This document shows positions 9,644 to 60,912 of a DNA stretch of 64,000 bases, piece by piece. The translations under genes were made by a program, and so were the position numbers. The notes beneath the pieces were generated by a model. It saw only the letters and a list, made by a program, of their open reading frames with translations. It made no database searches and was not told where the DNA came from. Source of the DNA: Eledone cirrhosa (Eukaryota); assembly GCA_964016885.1 (NCBI GenBank), contig OZ024758.1, positions 8,246,001 through 8,310,000 on the forward strand, read 5' to 3'. Numbering within the stretch: the first letter of the stretch is position 1; each line of letters starts with the position of its first letter.

Positions 9644-10545
9644 ATCTTTTATACTTCGAAAGAATCTAATAACCGAACTAGATGGAATTTCACTGCACCT
9701 TATTTATCACAAATAAATTTACAAACACGTTTTCGGATAAAAAAAAAAGTCTTATAAAACAAATTCAAAAATGAAATTTATAAATACTTTTCTTTTTAAT
9801 CCCGAAATCTTATTTGCTCTGCTAAATAATGTATATTTATTGGGTTGCAACGTGCTATTAAATTGATACTCAGGCCCGTCACTTAGAGTGGGTGTGTTGG
9901 GGACACCAGACTCTACTTTTCCATGGTTATCATCATCATCTATTGCTCTTGTTAGATAGGACTGGGTCATCCCGGTCAGCGATTCCAGAGGCATTATCAC
10001 GCGTAGAGCTGACAACTTTTCAATGGTGCACTCTCACCATACGTCCCTTGCGAAAAAGTGACCACCCCAGGATGTTCTGAAGTAACCACCCGACATCAAA
10101 GCTTGACAACGGATCTGTTACTCTCACCTGATGGTTGATGTATTATATACAACAGACTTTATCTTTCAAGAAACCGGCTAGCTAAAATCATACAACAAAA
10201 ATATGCAACTCTATTTACACAAATATATATTGTATAGTAAAGTATTATTTTTAGTTGTTTTTTTTTTCTTTTAATATTTTAATGTTTTAAATGCATAAAC
10301 GAAAATCGGATTAGTAGAGAGAGAGCATTACGAGAAAATACTAATCTATTTAAGCAAACCTGTTAATAACCTGCTGCTGCTTAATTCGGCCTAACACCGT
10401 CTCCCTAAATACACTTACTATGTGTTGATACATGGACATAACACTAATAATACACGCATAGATATATGCCCCAGCATGGCCTCAACCTGTCAGCTGAAAC
10501 ATGTAATAGAGAGTATTATATATATATATATATAAATAAATAACA

Positions 10546-10660
10546 GATTCAGGACCCCGATGGTTGAGCTCCGGCCGTTTCGATAGCTAGATCCGAACTA
10601 GATCGGATCCGGAGCTCAACTGTCGAGGTCCTGAATCATTTCATATTACCCACACCCTCT
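10546..10660. mobile_element. Fold-back element between (TA)n runs (family also at 11055, 12480-12590, 20220-20312, 51930-52170)
   Basis: Arms GATTCAGGACCCCGATGGTTGAGCTCCGG / CCGGAGCTCAACTGTCGAGGTCCTGAATC. Confidence 0.7.
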
Positions 10661-10661
10661 A

Positions 10662-10693
<32 letters not shown>

Positions 10694-11127
10694 AGGCATC
10701 CGCATGGAGTTGGCGGCCGAGAGAGAAGAGTACTCAACACCCAAGTAGAGTTTAAATATGCATTTCATTAAGGCTAGTGAGTCTTGTTAAGCAGGCGAAA
10801 CTCCAGAGTAACAAAACTCACTATTTAGCCTTAATTAAATGAGTGTATAAATATATATATATATATACATACACTCGTTTTATTAAGGCTAAATGGTGTG
10901 TGTGTATATATATATATATATATACTTATTAAAGCTAAAAAGTGTACGTATTTGTGTGCAATGATATTAAATAAATGGAAACTATATTTATAAAACCATA
11001 TTTATTTTATTATATATATTTCAAGGGCAACCAAGATATATAGATATATGAAAAGAGTCAGTACCCCGTCGGCTGAGCTCCGGCCGTTTCGATAGTTAGA
11101 TCCGAACAGCTATATATGTGGGTGTGA

Positions 11128-11180
<53 letters not shown>

Positions 11181-12311
11181 TCACAGCCACAGTATAACTG
11201 CTAATTCGCTGTTCGCTTTCATTTGATTTAGCCTTATTCTCGGGTCAAAGTTGTATAACTTGTTTTTATGTGCGTGCTATTTCTGTATGCTTCATTAACT
11301 TGCTTAAACGTGTCATAAAATGTATAATGCTCAAGAAATTACTTATTCTAATAATTCTTAAAGGCTATTTACGCTAGCTTATTTTCGTTGTCTTTAATTA
11401 ATATTTATTTTATTTTAAGTGTATTTTTTTTTATTGCAACGTCTGCTTCATACGTCTATAACAAATATTCCCTTTAATCCTGCGAGAACTTGGTGTCAGG
11501 AATGAGATAGAAGTGAAACTACAGACTTCGTTGTTTTCTGTTGCTACGTACAGTGTTACTAACATAACACACGTTTGTAATGTGCTTCAGGCTTGATAAT
11601 GAATGTAAATTTGGTATTTTTAGATATGCATTACCCTTCATCTTATAGGACGGCGAAGTGGCGGAGTTGTTAGAACGTCAGATACAATGTCCTGTGGTAT
11701 TCGTTCTCTCTGCTCTCCCAGTTCAAATCCCAACCAGGTCAACTTTGACTTTCATCCATTCGAGGTCGATAAAAAAAAAGTACCAGTCAAGTATTCGGGT
11801 CGATTCTTCCTCTATATCTCTTTTTCATCTCCTTTCTCTCGTCCTCTATTCAGACCTGGAGAGGAGATGGGCTCTGCCAGGTTTTAAAATAACCAAGAAA
11901 CACCGTACGTCAATATGGCGCCCTACGACACCCTCAAGAGTTACGGGTCTATACATATCCCTCGCTGTTTTCAGAAGTCCCTTAATACTTACCCTGATGA
12001 AATAAATGGTGTCGTATCTAGTTTATTAGTCCTTCGCCTCCTCACCTGCACCACATCCGTATAAATTTGGTATTAGTTGTTAAATAAACGAAAAGGTTTT
12101 ATATTAGACAGAAAAGTTTCAGAAAAATAAATCTTTGAATCTTTAATATGGAATACCATCCGTTCCTGCCTTTGCACTGTATTCAAACAGAAAACTTATA
12201 AAGCCATGTCTCTGGAATACAAACTGGAAGTGTGTGGAGGAGGGAGGGATGTTCAAATCCTCAGAGCAGCCGATGACGATCCCTTTTTCCGTCTTTTAAG
12301 GGTCTTCGCCC

Positions 12312-12358
<47 letters not shown>

Positions 12359-12686
12359 GAAAGAAGAATACTGCGTGGTTGCACATGGGTTACATATGAT
12401 AAAATTAGTCCTTCGTCAGTGATTTGCCAACCATCATTATATATATATATATCAGGATGGATTCAGTTTGAAATTGGTTAGACCATTACTCACCAGAGTA
12501 CTCGATACTTGGGGCAGTGGAGTATGATTATATTATAAAGAGTCGGTACCCGACGGCTGAGCTCTTACCGTTTCAACAGCCAGTTCCAGATTTCTAAAGA
12601 ATGAAACAGTTCTAGTCCTGTAGAATCTCCTATATATATATACACATTATATTAATAAATAGAAACTATATTTATAAAACCATATT

Positions 12687-12752
12687 TATTTTATTATATA
12701 TATTTCAAGGGCCACCAAGGCAAATTATGGTGCACTTTCATCAGATAAAATA
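12687..12752 (-). ncRNA. Canonical type I hammerhead ribozyme
   Basis: Minus strand: TATTTTAT-CTGATGA-AAGTGCACCA(taatttgcct)TGGTGGCCCTT-GAAA-TATATA-TA-ATAAAATA. 8-bp perfect stem I, complete CUGAUGA/GAAA core, 9-bp stem II, AUA cleavage triplet. Confidence 0.8.
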
Positions 12753-12888
12753 CAATACAGATTAGTTTTATAAATAAATATTGACATACCCTGAAAAAAG
12801 ACAACCTTAACGGTTGGAGCTTCCTGGATAGTCAAAATGTTTAAGCTTGTTGAATCCCAACAAATTAAATAGAACCTCTGCATATATA

Positions 12889-13052
12889 TATAAGGAAAAG
12901 AAATCGAAAATGCAACTGGAGTCTTTTTAAGAATATTTATTTGTTTCCTTTGCCGGTTCCATCTCAATTCTACTTTTGAAAAGTAGCAAACCGGCAAAGG
13001 AAATAAATATTCTTAAAAAGACTCGTTGCATTTTCGATTTCTTTTCCTTATA
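12889..13052. mobile_element. Fold-back element, ~65-bp arms, next to (TA)n
   Basis: TATAAGGAAAAGAAATCGAAAATGCAAC...TGCCGGTT / AACCGGCA...TTTTCCTTATA; small CTACTTT/AAAGTAG hairpin in spacer. Confidence 0.8.
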
Positions 13053-14363
13053 CTTTCACTCGTGTAGGACATCTCGTTTTTTTTTTATTAAAAAAAACCT
13101 CGTGTTCTTATATATATAATATATATATATATATATTAAAGAACGTTTTAAAATCATTTTCTCACAAAAGTCTACATAAAATTAAACTTAGCAATTAAGA
13201 GAAAAATGTTATCCGTCAGATATAAAATATTTTTCTTGTTTGATTGCTTTTAAAGTTCAATAAATAATTCTTATAAATTGGTTGATTGGATAAATAATAT
13301 ACTTAATATTTCTTAATCCTTTAACATCTTGTAATGATTTAGCAGAACATGTCTAGTAATTCGAATGTTTATAGTATATTTTACTAGGGGGACAGATTGT
13401 TGTGAAAATTACAGAAAACTAAAGTAAAATCTTTAATGTGATAGTCATAGTACTATTTTTTTTACTTTTCAAGAACGTCTTGTTAATGTGGTTTCGTGTG
13501 GCTCGGGATATAAAGAGTTATATAGTAATACCATTTTAAAATAGTATTCTTGGTGTTTTATTCCTGTTAAATGTCGTTTCGAATGAACTATTATCATTGT
13601 TATTTTGTGGTTGCTCTACTTTGCTCTCTTGTAAGAAGTCTTAGGTGTGTCGTCTTTAGTATTTTTTTTGTAAATGTCGTGGGTGGAGTTCATCCTACTC
13701 TAGATCTGGACATGATCGATTTCTTCCAATGAGAGAGAAAGAAGAGGAATCGATCCCAGAACTTGACTGGACCATTGGAATAATAAAAAGTTAACTCTGA
13801 ACCCGGTGACATTTGAACTCAGGACACAGCAATAACAATAACCAACTAAGCTGCCAATCCACCACCTATTTCTGTTGTTGTTGGATACTAAAACATTCTT
13901 TTTGCTTTAGTTTTACAATATCTCCTTCCTACTTAAGTACTTTACACACCTGTATATATATAAAAAAAAAAAGGAGTGTCTATTACAATAGAAAGGGAAG
14001 TTTAGCTATGTTTGTTGTCTGACTGTTGCACCTTCCTCCTCATTTCCTTAATTACTACAAAGGTAAGATGTACAAACAGTTAAAGATCCACTCCCTGGCC
14101 TTGTTTACCTGAAATATTAGTTTGAAATCATTTTTATTTGCAGCCGGTTTAACAAACAAACAAACAAAAAAAAAAAAGGCTAAAATTGAATAGAAAGGTA
14201 ATATTTACAACACTTGTCCCACCGACTGTTATATACCTGCTGTGGTCTATTGTAGATTTGATCTACAATGAGATCAGGTTTTAGATGGAGACTTTAAGAA
14301 ATGAACAATTGGGTGCGAGGTGTGTGTGTATGTATGTACACACACACACATACATACAAACAA

Positions 14364-15054: not shown

Positions 15055-15200
15055 AATATAGAAATGACTTCTACAGGACTGGAACTGTTTTATTCGAAGG
15101 AAATCATTCGAATGAAACAGTTCTAGTCCTGTAGAGGCCATTTCTATATTAAACATTGTATATAGTATTGAATACCTTACTGTGGTTACCCCCGATTGAA
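15055..15200. mobile_element. Fold-back element, 44-bp arms (15055-15098 / 15107-15150) plus tail
   Basis: Arm 2 has GAAAC-AGTTCTA-GTC-CTGTAG (HHR 3' half); relatives at 12598, 35949, 36654. Confidence 0.75.
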
Positions 15201-20018: not shown

Positions 20019-21019
20019 ATATATATATATATATATATATATTTATTAAAATAACAGATTAAAGTTTAAGCAAAGAATCACTGCTTTCACCCTTAACGGG
20101 ATCCTCTGAAACTAACAAAGTCAATCTGTGAACGCAGAAGTAAATATTTCAAAAAAGTTGCAACCGGAAGAAGACAGGCAGACGATACTTTGGTTTGTGG
20201 AAATGTTCGTGAACCCTAACCTACCAGAGTACTGGATACTTGGGTAGTAGAGTGGGTAATATGAAAAGATTCAGGACCCTAATGGCTGATCCCCAGCCGT
20301 TTCGACAGCTACATGTTTATATATATATATAAGCAGTGTTTTATTAATCAATTGTTGTCTCTTATGGAATCCACAAAAGACAATTCAACTGTAATATCAT
20401 CATCATTGTTTAACATCCATTTTCCCACACTAACATGGGTTAAACAAGTTGTTCCATTAAGAAACAAGCCAGATCAGATGGTTGTGTCTTGCTCATAAAG
20501 AACTGATTTTAGCTTCGTTTCTATTACTATATTAAGGATTTTTTGCAAGCAGCAATAATTAGAAGTGTACTCAAGTAGAATGTGTTAGTTAGTCCTGCTA
20601 TATAGCAGCCACCATACTTTATTACACTCATTGTAAACCTCATGACACTTTATAAAAGTTTTCTTGCTAAATTTACTCCTTTTTAACTAATCCTGGGTCT
20701 ATGAAAATGTTTATATTTATCTAAAAACCTTCCACCTTGATTTTATACAAGAACCTTTAGGTTATGTCCCAAACACCAGCTTGATAATGAAAAAGTTATT
20801 TTACTAAATCCCTCCAAATTATTGATTATTTAAAGAAAATATTTGTAAATCATATATAGCATCTTTCATTAGAAATATGGTAACAAAATCTGATAGTTTA
20901 AAAAAATTATTTATTAGTCTTTCTCTCAAAGTTACTAGTATACCATGGTGGAATTATATATAAAATAAGCTGTACTTCATTCACTGGAATTATTACACTC
21001 TGCTTCTTTTATATATAAT

Positions 21020-32964: not shown

Positions 32965-34207
32965 TGTCCTTATGTAGTTGATGACCGTCAATGTCCAAAG
33001 ATTTCTTGAACTTTATGGGGTCAGTTTCTGTTTTAGTGTCGTGTTAAAGAGAGCGAGGCCAATTGAGGTGAAATAATTCTGCCGTGTTATGAAATGCGAG
33101 TTTGATTGTTGTTATGCGCTGATAGCACGGGGCCCAAGCCTTAGGTGTACCTTAAAGGTGATGCCAACATCATCTGGGCCATGCTGATGGAATATTTTCC
33201 ACATTATGCAGATAATGTAGCACTCGCTGCAAATTTGGAGAGACTAAAGGTTGAGCTTTTCTAGTCGACTCCAATAGTCAAGGCCTGTCATGCCATCTAT
33301 CTTTTTTGTAATTGACCTTTGAGGTGCTTCAACTTTCATGATACTTTGTTTTGTGTGGGAAGACCACAGTGGACAACAGTATTCAAGGTGGGTTCAGGCA
33401 AAAGTGGAGATGAGAAGGATAATGGTGTGGATATCTATCGACTGGAAAGTTCTGAGAATCCAGGAACACATTCTGCAGGCCATCTCAACTTTGCTGTTTA
33501 TATGAGTGGCCTGGCTTATGTTGTTGTCCACAATTACTCCCAAGTCTGTGATGTAGTTGGATACCACAAGAGTTTCACCTGAATGACGGGAGTATGGGAG
33601 TTTCAGTGCATCCTCTTTTCCAAAGTGGATTAACTCAAATTTATCCTCCATTCAGCAGCATATTGTTCTTTTTCACCCATTGGATAACAGCCAGTAGGTC
33701 AGATTGAAGGCAAGTCCAGTTACCCACCCCATTGATGACCTTCTGGAACTTGGAATCATCTGCAAAGATTCTTATGTTGCTGTGCTTGATGATGTCAGTA
33801 ATGTCATTAATGTAGATAATGAAGAGAAGTGGGCCCAACACACTGCCTTGTGGGACGCCACTACTGACTTTGGCTGGACTTGATTTTACTCCTTCGACTA
33901 CATGTTGGGCTCTGTCTGTCAGGAAACACTTGATCCGTCGCAGTAACTTTCCAGAGACACCAATGCTGGATAGCTTTTTCAATAGAATCTTATGATCAAC
34001 CCTGTCAAAGGCCTTGCTGAAATCAAGGTAGATGACATCAGTGTTGGAGCCCTCTCCCAAAGCTCTCAAGATGTCATCAAAGTGACGCAGGAGCTGCATT
34101 AGACGGTCCCTTCCATTACGGAACCCATCTTGGTTGGAGTTCAGCAGTCTGTTGCTTTCAAGAAAGTGGGTTAGTCATGATCTCACCACCCTCTCAAATA
34201 CCCTGAT
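32965..34207 (-). mobile_element. CR1-group LINE reverse transcriptase remnant, frameshifted
   Basis: DVIYLDFSKAFDRVDH, SGVPQGSVLGPLLFIIYIND, IFADDSK, DLGVIVD split over ORFs 33641-34099 and 33394-33651. Confidence 0.93.
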
Positions 34208-35947: not shown

Positions 35948-36260
35948 ACATAGAAATGGCTTCTACAGGACTAGAACTGTTTCATTCGGAGGAAATCATA
36001 GTACCTTACTTACTGTAGTTACCCAAGATTGAACCCGGTATAAACTTATATATATTTATTGAAGTTTGGTGGTTCACCACTGGATAGAACTGATCATTCC
36101 GTATAGTTAACCATGATGTATTAGTAGAAAAAGCACTCTACGTTATTCAACTCATCCATCTATGATGTTGAATTCTGTTGGTGGTGCGGAAATGGAGTTA
36201 ATTATTATAGAATAAAATGACAGAAGGCCTGACTGGTGAATTTCCTTTCAAGTTTTATTG

Positions 36261-36653: not shown

Positions 36654-36743
36654 ATAGAAATGGCTTCTACAGGACTAAAACTGTTTCATAGGTACGATTT
36701 CATATGAACAAAATAGTTCTAGTCCTATAGAAGTCATTTCTAT
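36654..36743. mobile_element. Fold-back element, 33-bp arms (same family as 15055)
   Basis: ATAGAAATGGCTTCTACAGGACTAAAACTGTTT / AAATAGTTCTAGTCCTATAGAAGTCATTTCTAT. Confidence 0.75.
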
Positions 36744-51929: not shown

Positions 51930-52170
51930 ATAGGAACAAGTATGACCCCGACGGCAGAGCTCAAGCCATTTTGACAGCTAATTATGGACTAAATAAGAAT
52001 TTTTAGCCAAAAATTTGAGGCTAAAAATTCTTATTTAGTCCAGAATTAGCCGTCGAAACGGCTTGAGCTCTGCCGTCGGGGTCATACTTGTTCCTATTAC
52101 CCACTCTACTACTCTAAGTATTGAGTACTTTGGTGCGTTATGGTCCATCTGGTTCCTTACCACATTTTCT
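51930..52170. mobile_element. Fold-back element, 79-bp arms (51930-52008 / 52019-52097) plus tail, between (TA)n runs
   Basis: Arms are reverse complements with few mismatches; tail homologous to 12480-12530 and 20220-20260. Confidence 0.82.
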
Positions 52171-52795: not shown

Positions 52796-53257
52796 GTAAG
52801 AATGTCTTCTATATGATCTCCATTTCTACTTATAATACAGGGTGTATCAAAAAGAATCATGAGACATACTCACTCAATTATGGGACAAATTTTACTATCC
52901 TGTAGATATATCCCATGTGTCATATTGAGCTTCTGTAAAAATTGTAAAGAAACCTTTATATTCCGACATGTAATCACCCAGAAACATTAGTGTCTGCAGT
53001 TCTGTTTACATGGCAACACAAGAGCAAGAATGATGGGGTCATTCTACTGACATGGCTTTAAATAGGCTGTTTGCATAATTGTAAATGAATTGAATATTAT
53101 TATTGATATTCGAAAAACTCAGATTACATTTATATATATATATATGTATATATATATGTGTATATATATGTGTATATATATGTATACTAGCTTAATACTT
53201 GTGTTAGCCAGCATATTCAGTATTAATAAGGAAACATTATATTTTCTATATTTTCAG

Positions 53258-54976
53258 CCACACCTGATTCATGTATACCTAGAAGTCAATCAGTGGACAT
53301 CCGCCGAGCAGTGACTCCTAACCCAGACATGCACAGCTACATTGATTCCACTATTCAACATAGAAGATCTATAACCCCAGGCCCAGAAACCTATTACAGG
53401 TACAAGGATTCTGACAGGGAGTCTATAACTTCAAGCAATGCTGAACATCAAAGGCAGGCTAGTTTTCTGACAGCAATTTCAGGATCTGAAGATACAGCAT
53501 CTAGCCATGCAAGCATTAAAAGCTTTCCTTTGGATTCAGTAAGCTTAAGCCGTTCCATGTCTCCATCTGTGAGTAATCCGTCCTCAAAGCCAAGCAGCAT
53601 TGCATCAGAATCTGTTGATCAGAACTTGTTAGGAGAGTACATATGTAATAATGGAAAACTTCAAGCTAAGTTTTGCAATCCAGCCAATATGAACAGTTGT
53701 ACTGGAGAAGTTTACAATGTTCAAAGAGGTAACTTCTCTGACCTTTCAACTCAAAGACATTCATCTGCATCAGTGAGGGATAATAAATCTTTTGAAAATG
53801 TCGGTCCTGAGAGTTTTAAAACTGAAGTAAGGACAACAAATGATTTCATTCAAGCTAATAGAAAGGCCATGGATAATCATATTCCTCTTTCAGTTGATTC
53901 TAAATATCGAGATGACACCATTACACCAAGGAACACTTATAAACCACAAATGACACAAAATAATGGTTATGATAATGTTAAACACAGCCACATAATTGTC
54001 AAACCAACAGCTCAAAGTACACAGCAAGATAATTATTATGAGAATATTAAACATGTTGGTCCTTTACATTCAGGTTTGGCAACATTACCAAGAAATAAAG
54101 ATACAACCAATGACAGGAAACAGTTAACAGCTCAACAAGAACATTCATCTTATTCTCGTCCACCAATCTCTCTAAAATGTCAGAAACCATTAGCAAGATC
54201 TGAAAATGGACAGCAGCAATATATTAACAGACATCGTTCTAATCATCCTAGTTTTAATCATTCTTTAAATCACATTCCCAAACCAGGAAATATGATCAGA
54301 AGTGTTTCAGCACACTCTTTGGCTTCTCCTAACTGTAAAACTATTTCCCAAGACCCTGAAGACAACTATAGCGAGGAAAAGTACATCGATCGCAAAACTG
54401 TCGAACATGTCATGAAGAAACTCTACACAAAACCATCGAAAGGTGCAATTAATGGCTTACGCCATTCCAGTAGAATCAAAGAAAACTTAAATGGTTTGGG
54501 AAATATTTCTTCATCAACTGAACTGAGTGAAGCCCTTACACTTGAAATTCCATATGATAGTGTATCGTTAGAATCTCAAAGGGATTCTGGTTATGGAAGC
54601 AGTGACAGGAATAGTTCAAGTTCATCAAGTAGTATTACAATGGACCCATACAGCCACTATTTGCCTCATAAAGTGGTCCAGCCTGTTTCTATACAGGAAA
54701 ATCTGAGCCGTGAAAAGAACAATATCTATTCTGGACTTGTTGGAAACAAAAATACATACTTGGGTCGGAAAGGTAGCATTGAGAGTATCTTGAACGGGCC
54801 TGTGTATTCAGACTCCACATTTTCGACAGATCTCTTCTGTGAGACTGCTTCAATAGACAACAAATCTTTGCCCGATAATGCTTTGACACTCTCTTCACAA
54901 AATATTAAATCTTCTTTAATGCAGCAAGGTAAAATGATACTACCTGATAAACCATTAAGTGGACATATTGTACGAG
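53258..54976 (+). CDS. USP54: USP53/54-like coding exon 11 (large Ser-rich disordered exon)
   Basis: 1719 nt open frame (563-aa ORF in track), ttttcag| and |gtaagt, phase 1-1; contains YIDRKTVE and RDSGYGSSDRNSSSS. Confidence 0.92.
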
Positions 54977-55198
54977 GTAAGTAAATGACATCTTTGCTTT
55001 ATTTTTTCAAGTATGTTCACTTCTTGAATCAATAGTTGATAGCACATGAAAAAAAAAACAGCGAAAATATCTTTTTCCCCTTTGAAATCGAGTGTGTGGA
55101 ATTCTATAATAATACCATTTATCTCTGTGTTGTTGATATATTTTATATTTAGTTGCAAAAATGTGTAAAAATCCCTTTTTTTCTCTGCTCGTTTCTAG

Positions 55199-59471: not shown

Positions 59472-59750
59472 TTATTAAACTGATAATTATTATTCTGAAG
59501 CATCATGCAGCTTTAAACTCTCAATTTGTTCTGCATGACTTCATTTCTTAGATTTATACCAACTGAATGTAACAAACATCAACATATGCATGTAAATCTG
59601 TGAAAAGCATGAAATTTTTTTGCATTTAAATTTCTTGTCTTCGCTAATTATTATATTTTTTTATCTTGTTTCTTTATTCCTTAATCTGCATTTTTGTCTT
59701 GCCTGTTTGATTTATGAATTTCTCTTTTTTTTTTTATTTTATTGTACCAG

Positions 59751-60912
59751 GAATAGCATGGCTGGTTTTTTGTCATCAAATGGCAACTCCTCTTCCTCCT
59801 CTCCCAGTAACAAGAAAGATAACTCGAATGTGTCAAATATTAGTTCAGTTTCATGTCTTCATAATTATCAACAACAAAAACACATTGTTCCAGTTAGTAA
59901 TGACAAATACTCAGATAAATATTTTTCTGACTCTAACCAAAAGAGTGCTAAACTACATTCTAAAATCTCTTCAGTGATTAGCAGAGAAATGGGAAAAGAT
60001 GAATCTGAAAGTTTAGATAATTGGAACAAAGCAAGTGTTTATGGTACGTTACCAAAGAACAAACCCAGGCACGTTATGTCTAAAGTGGTAAACCAGGAAG
60101 CTGAGGTCTATCAGATGTTCTTAAATCGACAAAAGCAACTCAACAAAGAGAACAATTCTATGTCTTCTTATATGAACAATGGCTGCAGGTCCTTTTCTCC
60201 GAATCCTCAAATAAACAGTATCATGAGTAATTCTAGCAGTAACTTTCATAAAACACGACCTTCAAGTACAATTTCCCAACCTCACAGTCGTTCTGATTCT
60301 CTTGATTCCTCGGCTAATAGCATTATATCTTGTGATTCAGCAGTAACAACAGTTTCTACACTCCAGTCTGTGAGACAAAGTAATTCTCCTGCTATGAACA
60401 CTTCTTCTTACAAGCAAGATACTCAACATCTGACAGCGTGTGGCACAAGAACATACCAACATGGTTCTGGGACCATGTACGGAAATGCTGATGAAAACCA
60501 TTCTAAACTTGAACAGTGTGCACCGTTGCCACAATTTAACCATTCTATGGAATCTTTTAAATCGGTGACAAATCAAGAAAACGGTGACACTAATGGAACA
60601 CGGACGAATGGGGTTTCAAATACAAGTGGGTTTTCTTCTTGTTTAACAATTTCTCATTTTACAAAAAGCAGCTTAGCTACAGCTCGGTCCACACCTAGTG
60701 TGGTACTATCAAAGTGCCAGCCTGTTAGTCCTATCACTTCTTGCAAAGCTAATACTGCACAGACAAGTCCAAAGATCAGTGAAAGTAGCTTTGTACTTCC
60801 TTTCCAAAGTAGAGCAATGGAAGGTAGAAACAGTGATGGAATCGTGAGACATAACAGAACTCTGCCAGATGCTTGCTTCCAAACTGCATGCTTACATAAG
60901 TCAGGTATATAA
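59751..60912 (+). CDS. USP54: USP53/54-like coding exon 15 (Ser/Asn-rich; last visible exon)
   Basis: Acceptor attgtaccag|, phase 2 matches exon 14; open to TAA 60910-60912; alternatively spliced out at CAG|GTATAT 60904/60905. Confidence 0.85.

Follow-up and report, generated by a model that had tools for sequence, protein, structure and literature searches.

A type I hammerhead motif in a TA-flanked, high-copy repeat of Eledone cirrhosa that resembles Penelope-like elements

We describe a type I hammerhead on the minus strand of a 64,000-nt stretch of Eledone cirrhosa DNA (the window), near the 3´ end of a TA-flanked, high-copy repeat of ~240 nt. The repeat is likely (probability about 0.7) a short non-autonomous derivative or a terminal repeat of a Penelope-like retroelement, and its ribozyme is predicted to need a paired second copy for efficient cutting. 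In the mechanism we propose, a Penelope-type reverse transcriptase (RT)/endonuclease would use RNA of the family as template for insertion into TA runs, and copying would start at a fixed point ~50 nt past the cut site and often stop early. If several units stood in one tandem or multimeric transcript, AUAUAUAU of one could pair with AUAUAUAU of another to give an 8-bp stem III, the strands of stem I would swap between the two, and each core may then cut the other unit after AUA. The unit is presented here as a putative catalytic RNA that is presumably non-autonomous.

The hammerhead motif at 12687-12752 is real. All core bases (CUGANGA, GAAA and U16.1-H17) are present on the minus strand, as an earlier note on this DNA had read them, and all pairs are possible in the three helices around the core, with stem I open-ended. 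C3-A9 (CUGAUGA) lies at 12738-12744 and G12-A15.1 (GAAA) at 12703-12706. A descriptor scan, which that note had proposed as a check, was run over the 64-kb window for a type I core with a stem II of at least 3 bp and a stem I of at least 5 bp, and its sole match was 12687-12752, with C3 at 12744 and A17 (H17) at 12695. By hammerhead numbering, this puts the predicted cleavage after AUA, between 12695 and 12694, the same position that the note had given. When the window was shuffled block-wise with dinucleotides preserved, 2 of 200 shuffles gave any match and none a stem I of at least 8 bp; in a local control (12600-12900, 20,000 shuffles), stem I reached at least 4 bp five times and at least 8 bp never.

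Folding bore out the 8-bp stem I, with 4 bp more beyond a bulged G (12753), that had been read from the letters. It also extends this stem across a 5-nt bulge into a distal helix of 14 bp, in which 12763-12776 pair with 12682-12669 (pair probability 0.79-1.0), for a total of 26 bp (8+4+14) over 12669-12776. Stem II (12707-12737), defined by folding and by reads, begins with 3 bp (A-U, A-U, G-C), followed by a U-C mismatch (12734/12710) and 6 further bp with a bulged G, and is closed by a 10-nt loop. The start of stem II before the mismatch, the bulged G and the distal helix of stem I are additions to what the earlier note described. Stem III, AUAUAUAU at 12696-12703, had been called self-complementary and is confirmed as an 8-nt palindrome, which forms 2 bp and a 4-nt loop in a monomer and an 8-bp duplex between two copies. 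The description "canonical", in contrast, has to be given up: the helices are not 6 bp and 4 bp long, an A-U pair replaces G10.1-C11.1 at the opening of stem II straight after A9, and the Rfam covariance models, also proposed as a check, returned no match to the motif at gathering score and, at E ≤ 10 over 10400-13200, 55 matches of which none was a hammerhead. "Intact" describes the core bases, but not stem II, where this copy carries U in place of the family C at the mismatch, nor the active monomer fold, which is predicted to be rare.

The preference for a dimer comes from predicted folds. In the monomer, the proximal part of stem I favors slipped pairing, by which the cut site is covered, and leaves the correct register a probability of 0.05; relative to the ensemble, the active junction is 6.1 kcal/mol less stable. 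With such slippage predicted, a solo copy such as that in the window would cut poorly. Replacing the letters with those of the family majority raises the correct register from 0.05 to 0.21-0.43, but the gap still exceeds 5 kcal/mol; in all 10 sequences folded, the active junction was 5.2-6.5 kcal/mol above the ensemble, and stem III, which consists of two A-U pairs, had a probability of ~0. Dimer cleavage appears likely because the active monomer is ~6 kcal/mol above the slipped, inactive form; an 8-bp stem III between two copies would block the slip. The two-copy core formed from the full copy and a half copy came to -24.9 kcal/mol, compared with -26.7 kcal/mol for the separate folds, a difference within 1.8 kcal/mol, and in an unconstrained cofold of the same two copies the active core does not form. 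Published work describes dimer cleavage by hammerheads of newt, axolotl and Penelope elements.

It is also conceivable, if unlikely in our estimate, that the monomer works and that the 26-bp stem I and the 10-bp stem II dock through a tertiary interaction, perhaps one involving the C-C mismatch found in the family, and that this offsets the weak stem III. In favor, conserved stems of this length would hinder strand swapping, the family-majority letters do improve the register of stem I, and newt hammerheads cleave as monomers when given looped helix I extensions. Nearest-neighbor energies ignore the core and tertiary contacts, and invertebrate retrozyme monomers with a 2-bp stem III, from coral and mussel, do cleave (0.8 and 0.1 per min). 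The near-zero probability of the two A-U pairs and the energy gap seen in every sequence folded nevertheless argue against a working monomer, as does a common family change in stem III, at 12699 (30-65%), that preserves dimer pairing through G-U. A common change at 12692 in stem I (34-84%) likewise gives a G-U pair.

The repeat unit that carries the ribozyme spans 12643-12881 on the minus strand, as delimited by comparison within the window and by reads. A TA run of 12 nt (12631-12642), the likely target site, borders its 3´ end, and one of 11 nt (12882-12892) borders its 5´ end, where 104 contigs of the public sequencing run X1 continue into TA at 12892. The repeat had been described as embedded in (TA)n, and TA runs do flank it, but at 12 and 11 nt these flanks are short. 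The 3´ end of the unit falls ~49-52 nt past the predicted cut. A second, 5´-truncated copy, which the earlier note had placed near 10972-11034, is present at 10961-11035 on the minus strand with 94.7% identity over 75 nt. It starts at loop 2 and retains GAAA, stem III, the cut site and the 3´ strand of stem I, in the same orientation and 1,684 nt downstream in the RNA sense. Thus, both window copies (2/2) share a common 3´ end and differ in their 5´ ends, a pattern of variable 5´ truncation that is a trait of Penelope-like elements. The whole unit folds slightly better than its shuffles (z -1.6), and its 5´ part (12777-12881) forms two weak hairpins (z -2.1) that we do not take as support, since no two-sided swap in them is found among the family changes listed. 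A six-frame motif scan for RT and endonuclease signatures detected no Penelope-type RT/GIY-YIG open reading frame (ORF) within the 64-kb window. Adjoining the 5´ TA run of the unit is an imperfect palindrome of 164 nt (12889-13052), the 28-nt outer arms of which are fully complementary.

These features could also be accommodated if the unit were an isolated monomer of a tandemly arranged non-LTR retrozyme, expressed as a circular RNA of ~250 nt that the hammerhead cuts and closes. The size of the unit is inside the 150-450 nt range of animal retrozymes, it has no ORF, and 41 reads of run X6 join its 5´ end (12892) head to tail back to 12657 through 17 TA-rich letters. That joint contains TA, so it may have arisen when another copy inserted into the adjacent TA run, or it may be a tandem unit. 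No tandem array was found at the ribozyme locus, the helix geometry is not that of the canonical retrozyme type, and the predicted circular fold is without the hammerhead stem I, all of which leaves this origin improbable. It also overlaps with derivation from a Penelope-like element, since retrozymes have been proposed in print to be Penelope derivatives. The broader proposal of the earlier note is supported by the second window copy, the reads and the modeled folds: a dispersed, TA-flanked repeat of Penelope type, carrying a type I hammerhead that is palindromic in stem III and more probably active as a dimer.

The ribozyme family is high-copy in public reads, which, together with the second window copy, bears out the claim that this is a repeat family. 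Four (X1, X4, X5 and X6) of the eight runs listed for the family were aligned to 12560-12960 (401 nt) at 80% likeness, with reads below 80% identity excluded; no RNA run was among those listed, which has no bearing on whether the family is expressed. Over this stretch 10,274 contigs of X1 align, a figure that is not a copy number because neighboring repeats are included, and the family is also found in a second organism (organism B, run X5). The summed depth in X1 is ~3.0-3.5 million over 12672-12699 versus ~0.7 million over 12728-12769, and higher depth over the 3´ half is expected if many copies are 5´-truncated. Some copies carry a conserved extension past the common 3´ end, with ACTC at letters 19-22 beyond 12657 (12,364 X6 reads and 6 X1 contigs). 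Covariation of the stems, the absence of which the earlier note would have counted against its reading, is seen in stem II. No core base varies among the 40 variant rows listed of 124, which bounds core conservation loosely given this share of the rows and the filtering out of divergent reads (<80% identity).

Stem II provides the clearest view of the family. The RNA base at 12734 is C in 99% (X1), 83% (X4), 100% (X5) and 91% (X6) of the aligned depth and stands opposite C at 12710, so that stem II pair 4 is C-C in the family and U-C in the window copy, which is changed from C to U at 12734. Loose-end consensuses resolve two forms of the stem. The first, from 50 X1 contigs (agreement 0.68), reads A-U, A-U, G-C, C-C, G-C, U-A, A-U, C-G, C-G, A-U. 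The second, from 13,415 X6 reads and one X5 contig (agreement 0.93), reads A-U, G-C, G-C, C-C, A-U, U-A, G-U, C-G, C-G, A-U and then has four more pairs; its read count is likely inflated, as the reduced-representation X6 reads end at a six-letter palindrome in this stem, presumably an SphI site. Between these two forms and the window copy there are three two-sided changes (pair 2 A-U/G-C, pair 5 G-C/A-U and pair 6 U-A/C-G), while the C-C of the family is unchanged. A chance assembly of a hammerhead-like pattern in AT-rich, TA-repeat sequence, to which the nearly all A-U stems I and III, the lack of an Rfam match and the folding of the 66-nt motif no better than shuffles (z 0.10) might point, is very unlikely in view of these two-sided changes and of the shuffles, none of which reached the 8-bp stem I in either control.

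The C-C at stem II pair 4, which most relatives retain, stands out in a hammerhead that is otherwise ordinary for Penelope-type elements. That the mismatch is fixed while the surrounding pairs swap points to a possible structural role. Neither the C-C mismatch, nor the long stem I, nor a paper on the family was found in print, in a literature search for which most subscription papers and bioRxiv supplements were outside the scope. An exact 26-nt family motif had no match in metagenome, prokaryote-genome and viral collections. The main text of a 2026 repeat annotation of O. vulgaris contains no mention of ribozymes (PMC13282606). We tentatively suggest, as an idea that is more doubtful than the reading of the repeat itself, that both arms of this ribozyme have been lengthened (stem I to 26 bp, stem II to 10-14 bp) and that a fixed C-C contact replaces the loop-loop contact and sets or limits the cleavage rate. 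The window copy might then be a natural C-to-U mutant, to which the 3´-half neighbor 1.7 kb downstream could supply a partner strand in one read-through transcript. If this is true, the window copy (U-C) and the family (C-C) make a ready test pair, and comparisons of U-C with C-C and of monomer with dimer would bear on the slowness of Penelope hammerheads and on what governs their activity.

The ribozyme unit sits within a cluster of other repeats that are separated by TA runs. Across one such run, tail to tail with the unit, is a member of a second, unrelated type I hammerhead family (12589-12631, plus strand), in which the CUGAUGA core is missing from the window copy and present in family reads. 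Half copies of this second family occur at 15069-15135, 36665-36732 and 35961-35987, and two pairs are fold-back inverted repeats centered near stem II. Several copies in the window, including that at 10961-11035, break off in stem II or loop 2, as would happen if copying stalled at this point. A third repeat family (12453-12588, 10542-10637, 11045-11107, 20223-20314 and 52033-52145) carries minus-strand GAAA, followed at some distance by ACTC...GAGT stems, with no CUGANGA found adjoining, and two of its copies are palindromic insertions. A short TA-flanked module at 12353-12437 (minus strand) has a CUGACGA core motif with no GAAA after it, and a SINE-like repeat at 11657-11770 has 14 partial matches elsewhere in the window.

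Further along the window, the plus strand from ~32,290 onward (32293-60912) holds exons of a gene for a USP54-like ubiquitin hydrolase, among them long low-complexity exons without a Pfam match (53230-54984 and 59596-60912). The only RT fragment seen (33641-34174, minus strand; RVT_1, E 1e-18) is in an intron of this gene, 21 kb from the ribozyme, and is one we take to be LINE-like. Two candidate functions were rejected. Regulation of the USP54-like pre-mRNA by cutting is ruled out, as the ribozyme is antisense and ~19.5 kb before the first recognized exon; cleavage of plain (UA)n RNA in trans is ruled out by inspection, as only 3 pairs of stem I would form.

Among known systems, the metazoan non-LTR retrozymes (Cervera and de la Pena, 2020, PMC7229834; bioRxiv 10.64898/2026.07.22.740005) are, in the features described in these sources, similarly short, non-coding and low in GC, with a type I hammerhead that has a 2-bp stem III and a 4-nt loop. 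They differ in being tandem, with a complete hammerhead in each unit and with monomers expressed as linear and circular RNA, whereas the window unit is solo and has non-canonical helix lengths. Canonical animal type I hammerheads have a helix I of 6 bp, a helix II of 4 bp and conserved loop-loop nucleotides; the window motif instead has 8+4+14 bp and 3+6 bp.

The Hydra clade of Penelope-like elements, for which hammerheads are tabulated by Craig et al. (2021, PMC8557442), includes Hydra-1_Obim from Octopus bimaculoides. The clade is set apart by its place in the RT phylogeny and by an endonuclease that lacks the CCHH motif. As described there, these elements resemble our unit in inserting into (TA)n, a target that is not specific to the clade since Naiads also use it, and in carrying a sense-strand hammerhead close to the 3´ end. 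The distance from the cut to the 3´ end is 30-55 nt in 10 of the 24 Hydra-clade families, and 49-52 nt here. The second hammerhead family of the window also recalls the rows in that table: its stem II starts with U-U and its stem III is 4 bp long. The window motif differs in the form of its stem III, which in the tabulated Hydra hammerheads has 3-4 bp with a 1-3 nt loop, none of the 24 families shows C-C at stem II pair 4 when the rows are compared by eye, and the hammerhead of Hydra-1_Obim, as given there, is unlike the window motif in shape. A search with six short family motifs in the consensus files that accompany that paper gave no hammerhead match and two unrelated coding matches.

The closest likeness is to those hammerheads of Penelope-like elements in which helix III is a small palindrome (Cervera and de la Pena, 2014, PMC4209133), which, in the rows given there, share with the window motif type I topology, a full core, a long helix II, dispersed solo copies and predicted action as dimers. 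The palindrome spans 15.1 to 16.1 in both, and 15.2-16.2 is palindromic here as well. Palindromic variants of stem III have been published for Penelope elements of Drosophila and Aedes: in the rows of PMC4209133, the palindrome of D. willistoni is 8 nt long, its position 17 is A and its core is closed by A-U, and D. virilis has a 6-nt AU palindrome. Two features of the Penelope consensus, an extra base following A9 and the G10.1-C11.1 pair, are absent from the window copy, and the published rows include A-U exceptions to G10.1-C11.1 (PMC4209133). Stem I, at 26 bp, is far longer than the 2-5 bp described for Penelope hammerheads in that source, and the family C-C at stem II pair 4 is a further difference from those it presents. 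The extension beyond 12657 resembles the Penelope "tail," an optional stretch of 30-40 nt at one end that in one element marks two start sites of reverse transcription. In one Penelope element, hammerhead cleavage is assisted by protein and is unnecessary for insertion in vitro, and the literature has not settled what Penelope-associated hammerheads do. Thousands of these hammerheads exist in animal genomes, so a single copy matters little, and what is useful in this one lies at the level of the family. Penelope-element hammerheads with a palindromic stem III, and the hammerhead of one octopus family, have already been published, and the window hammerhead is a further example of that kind.
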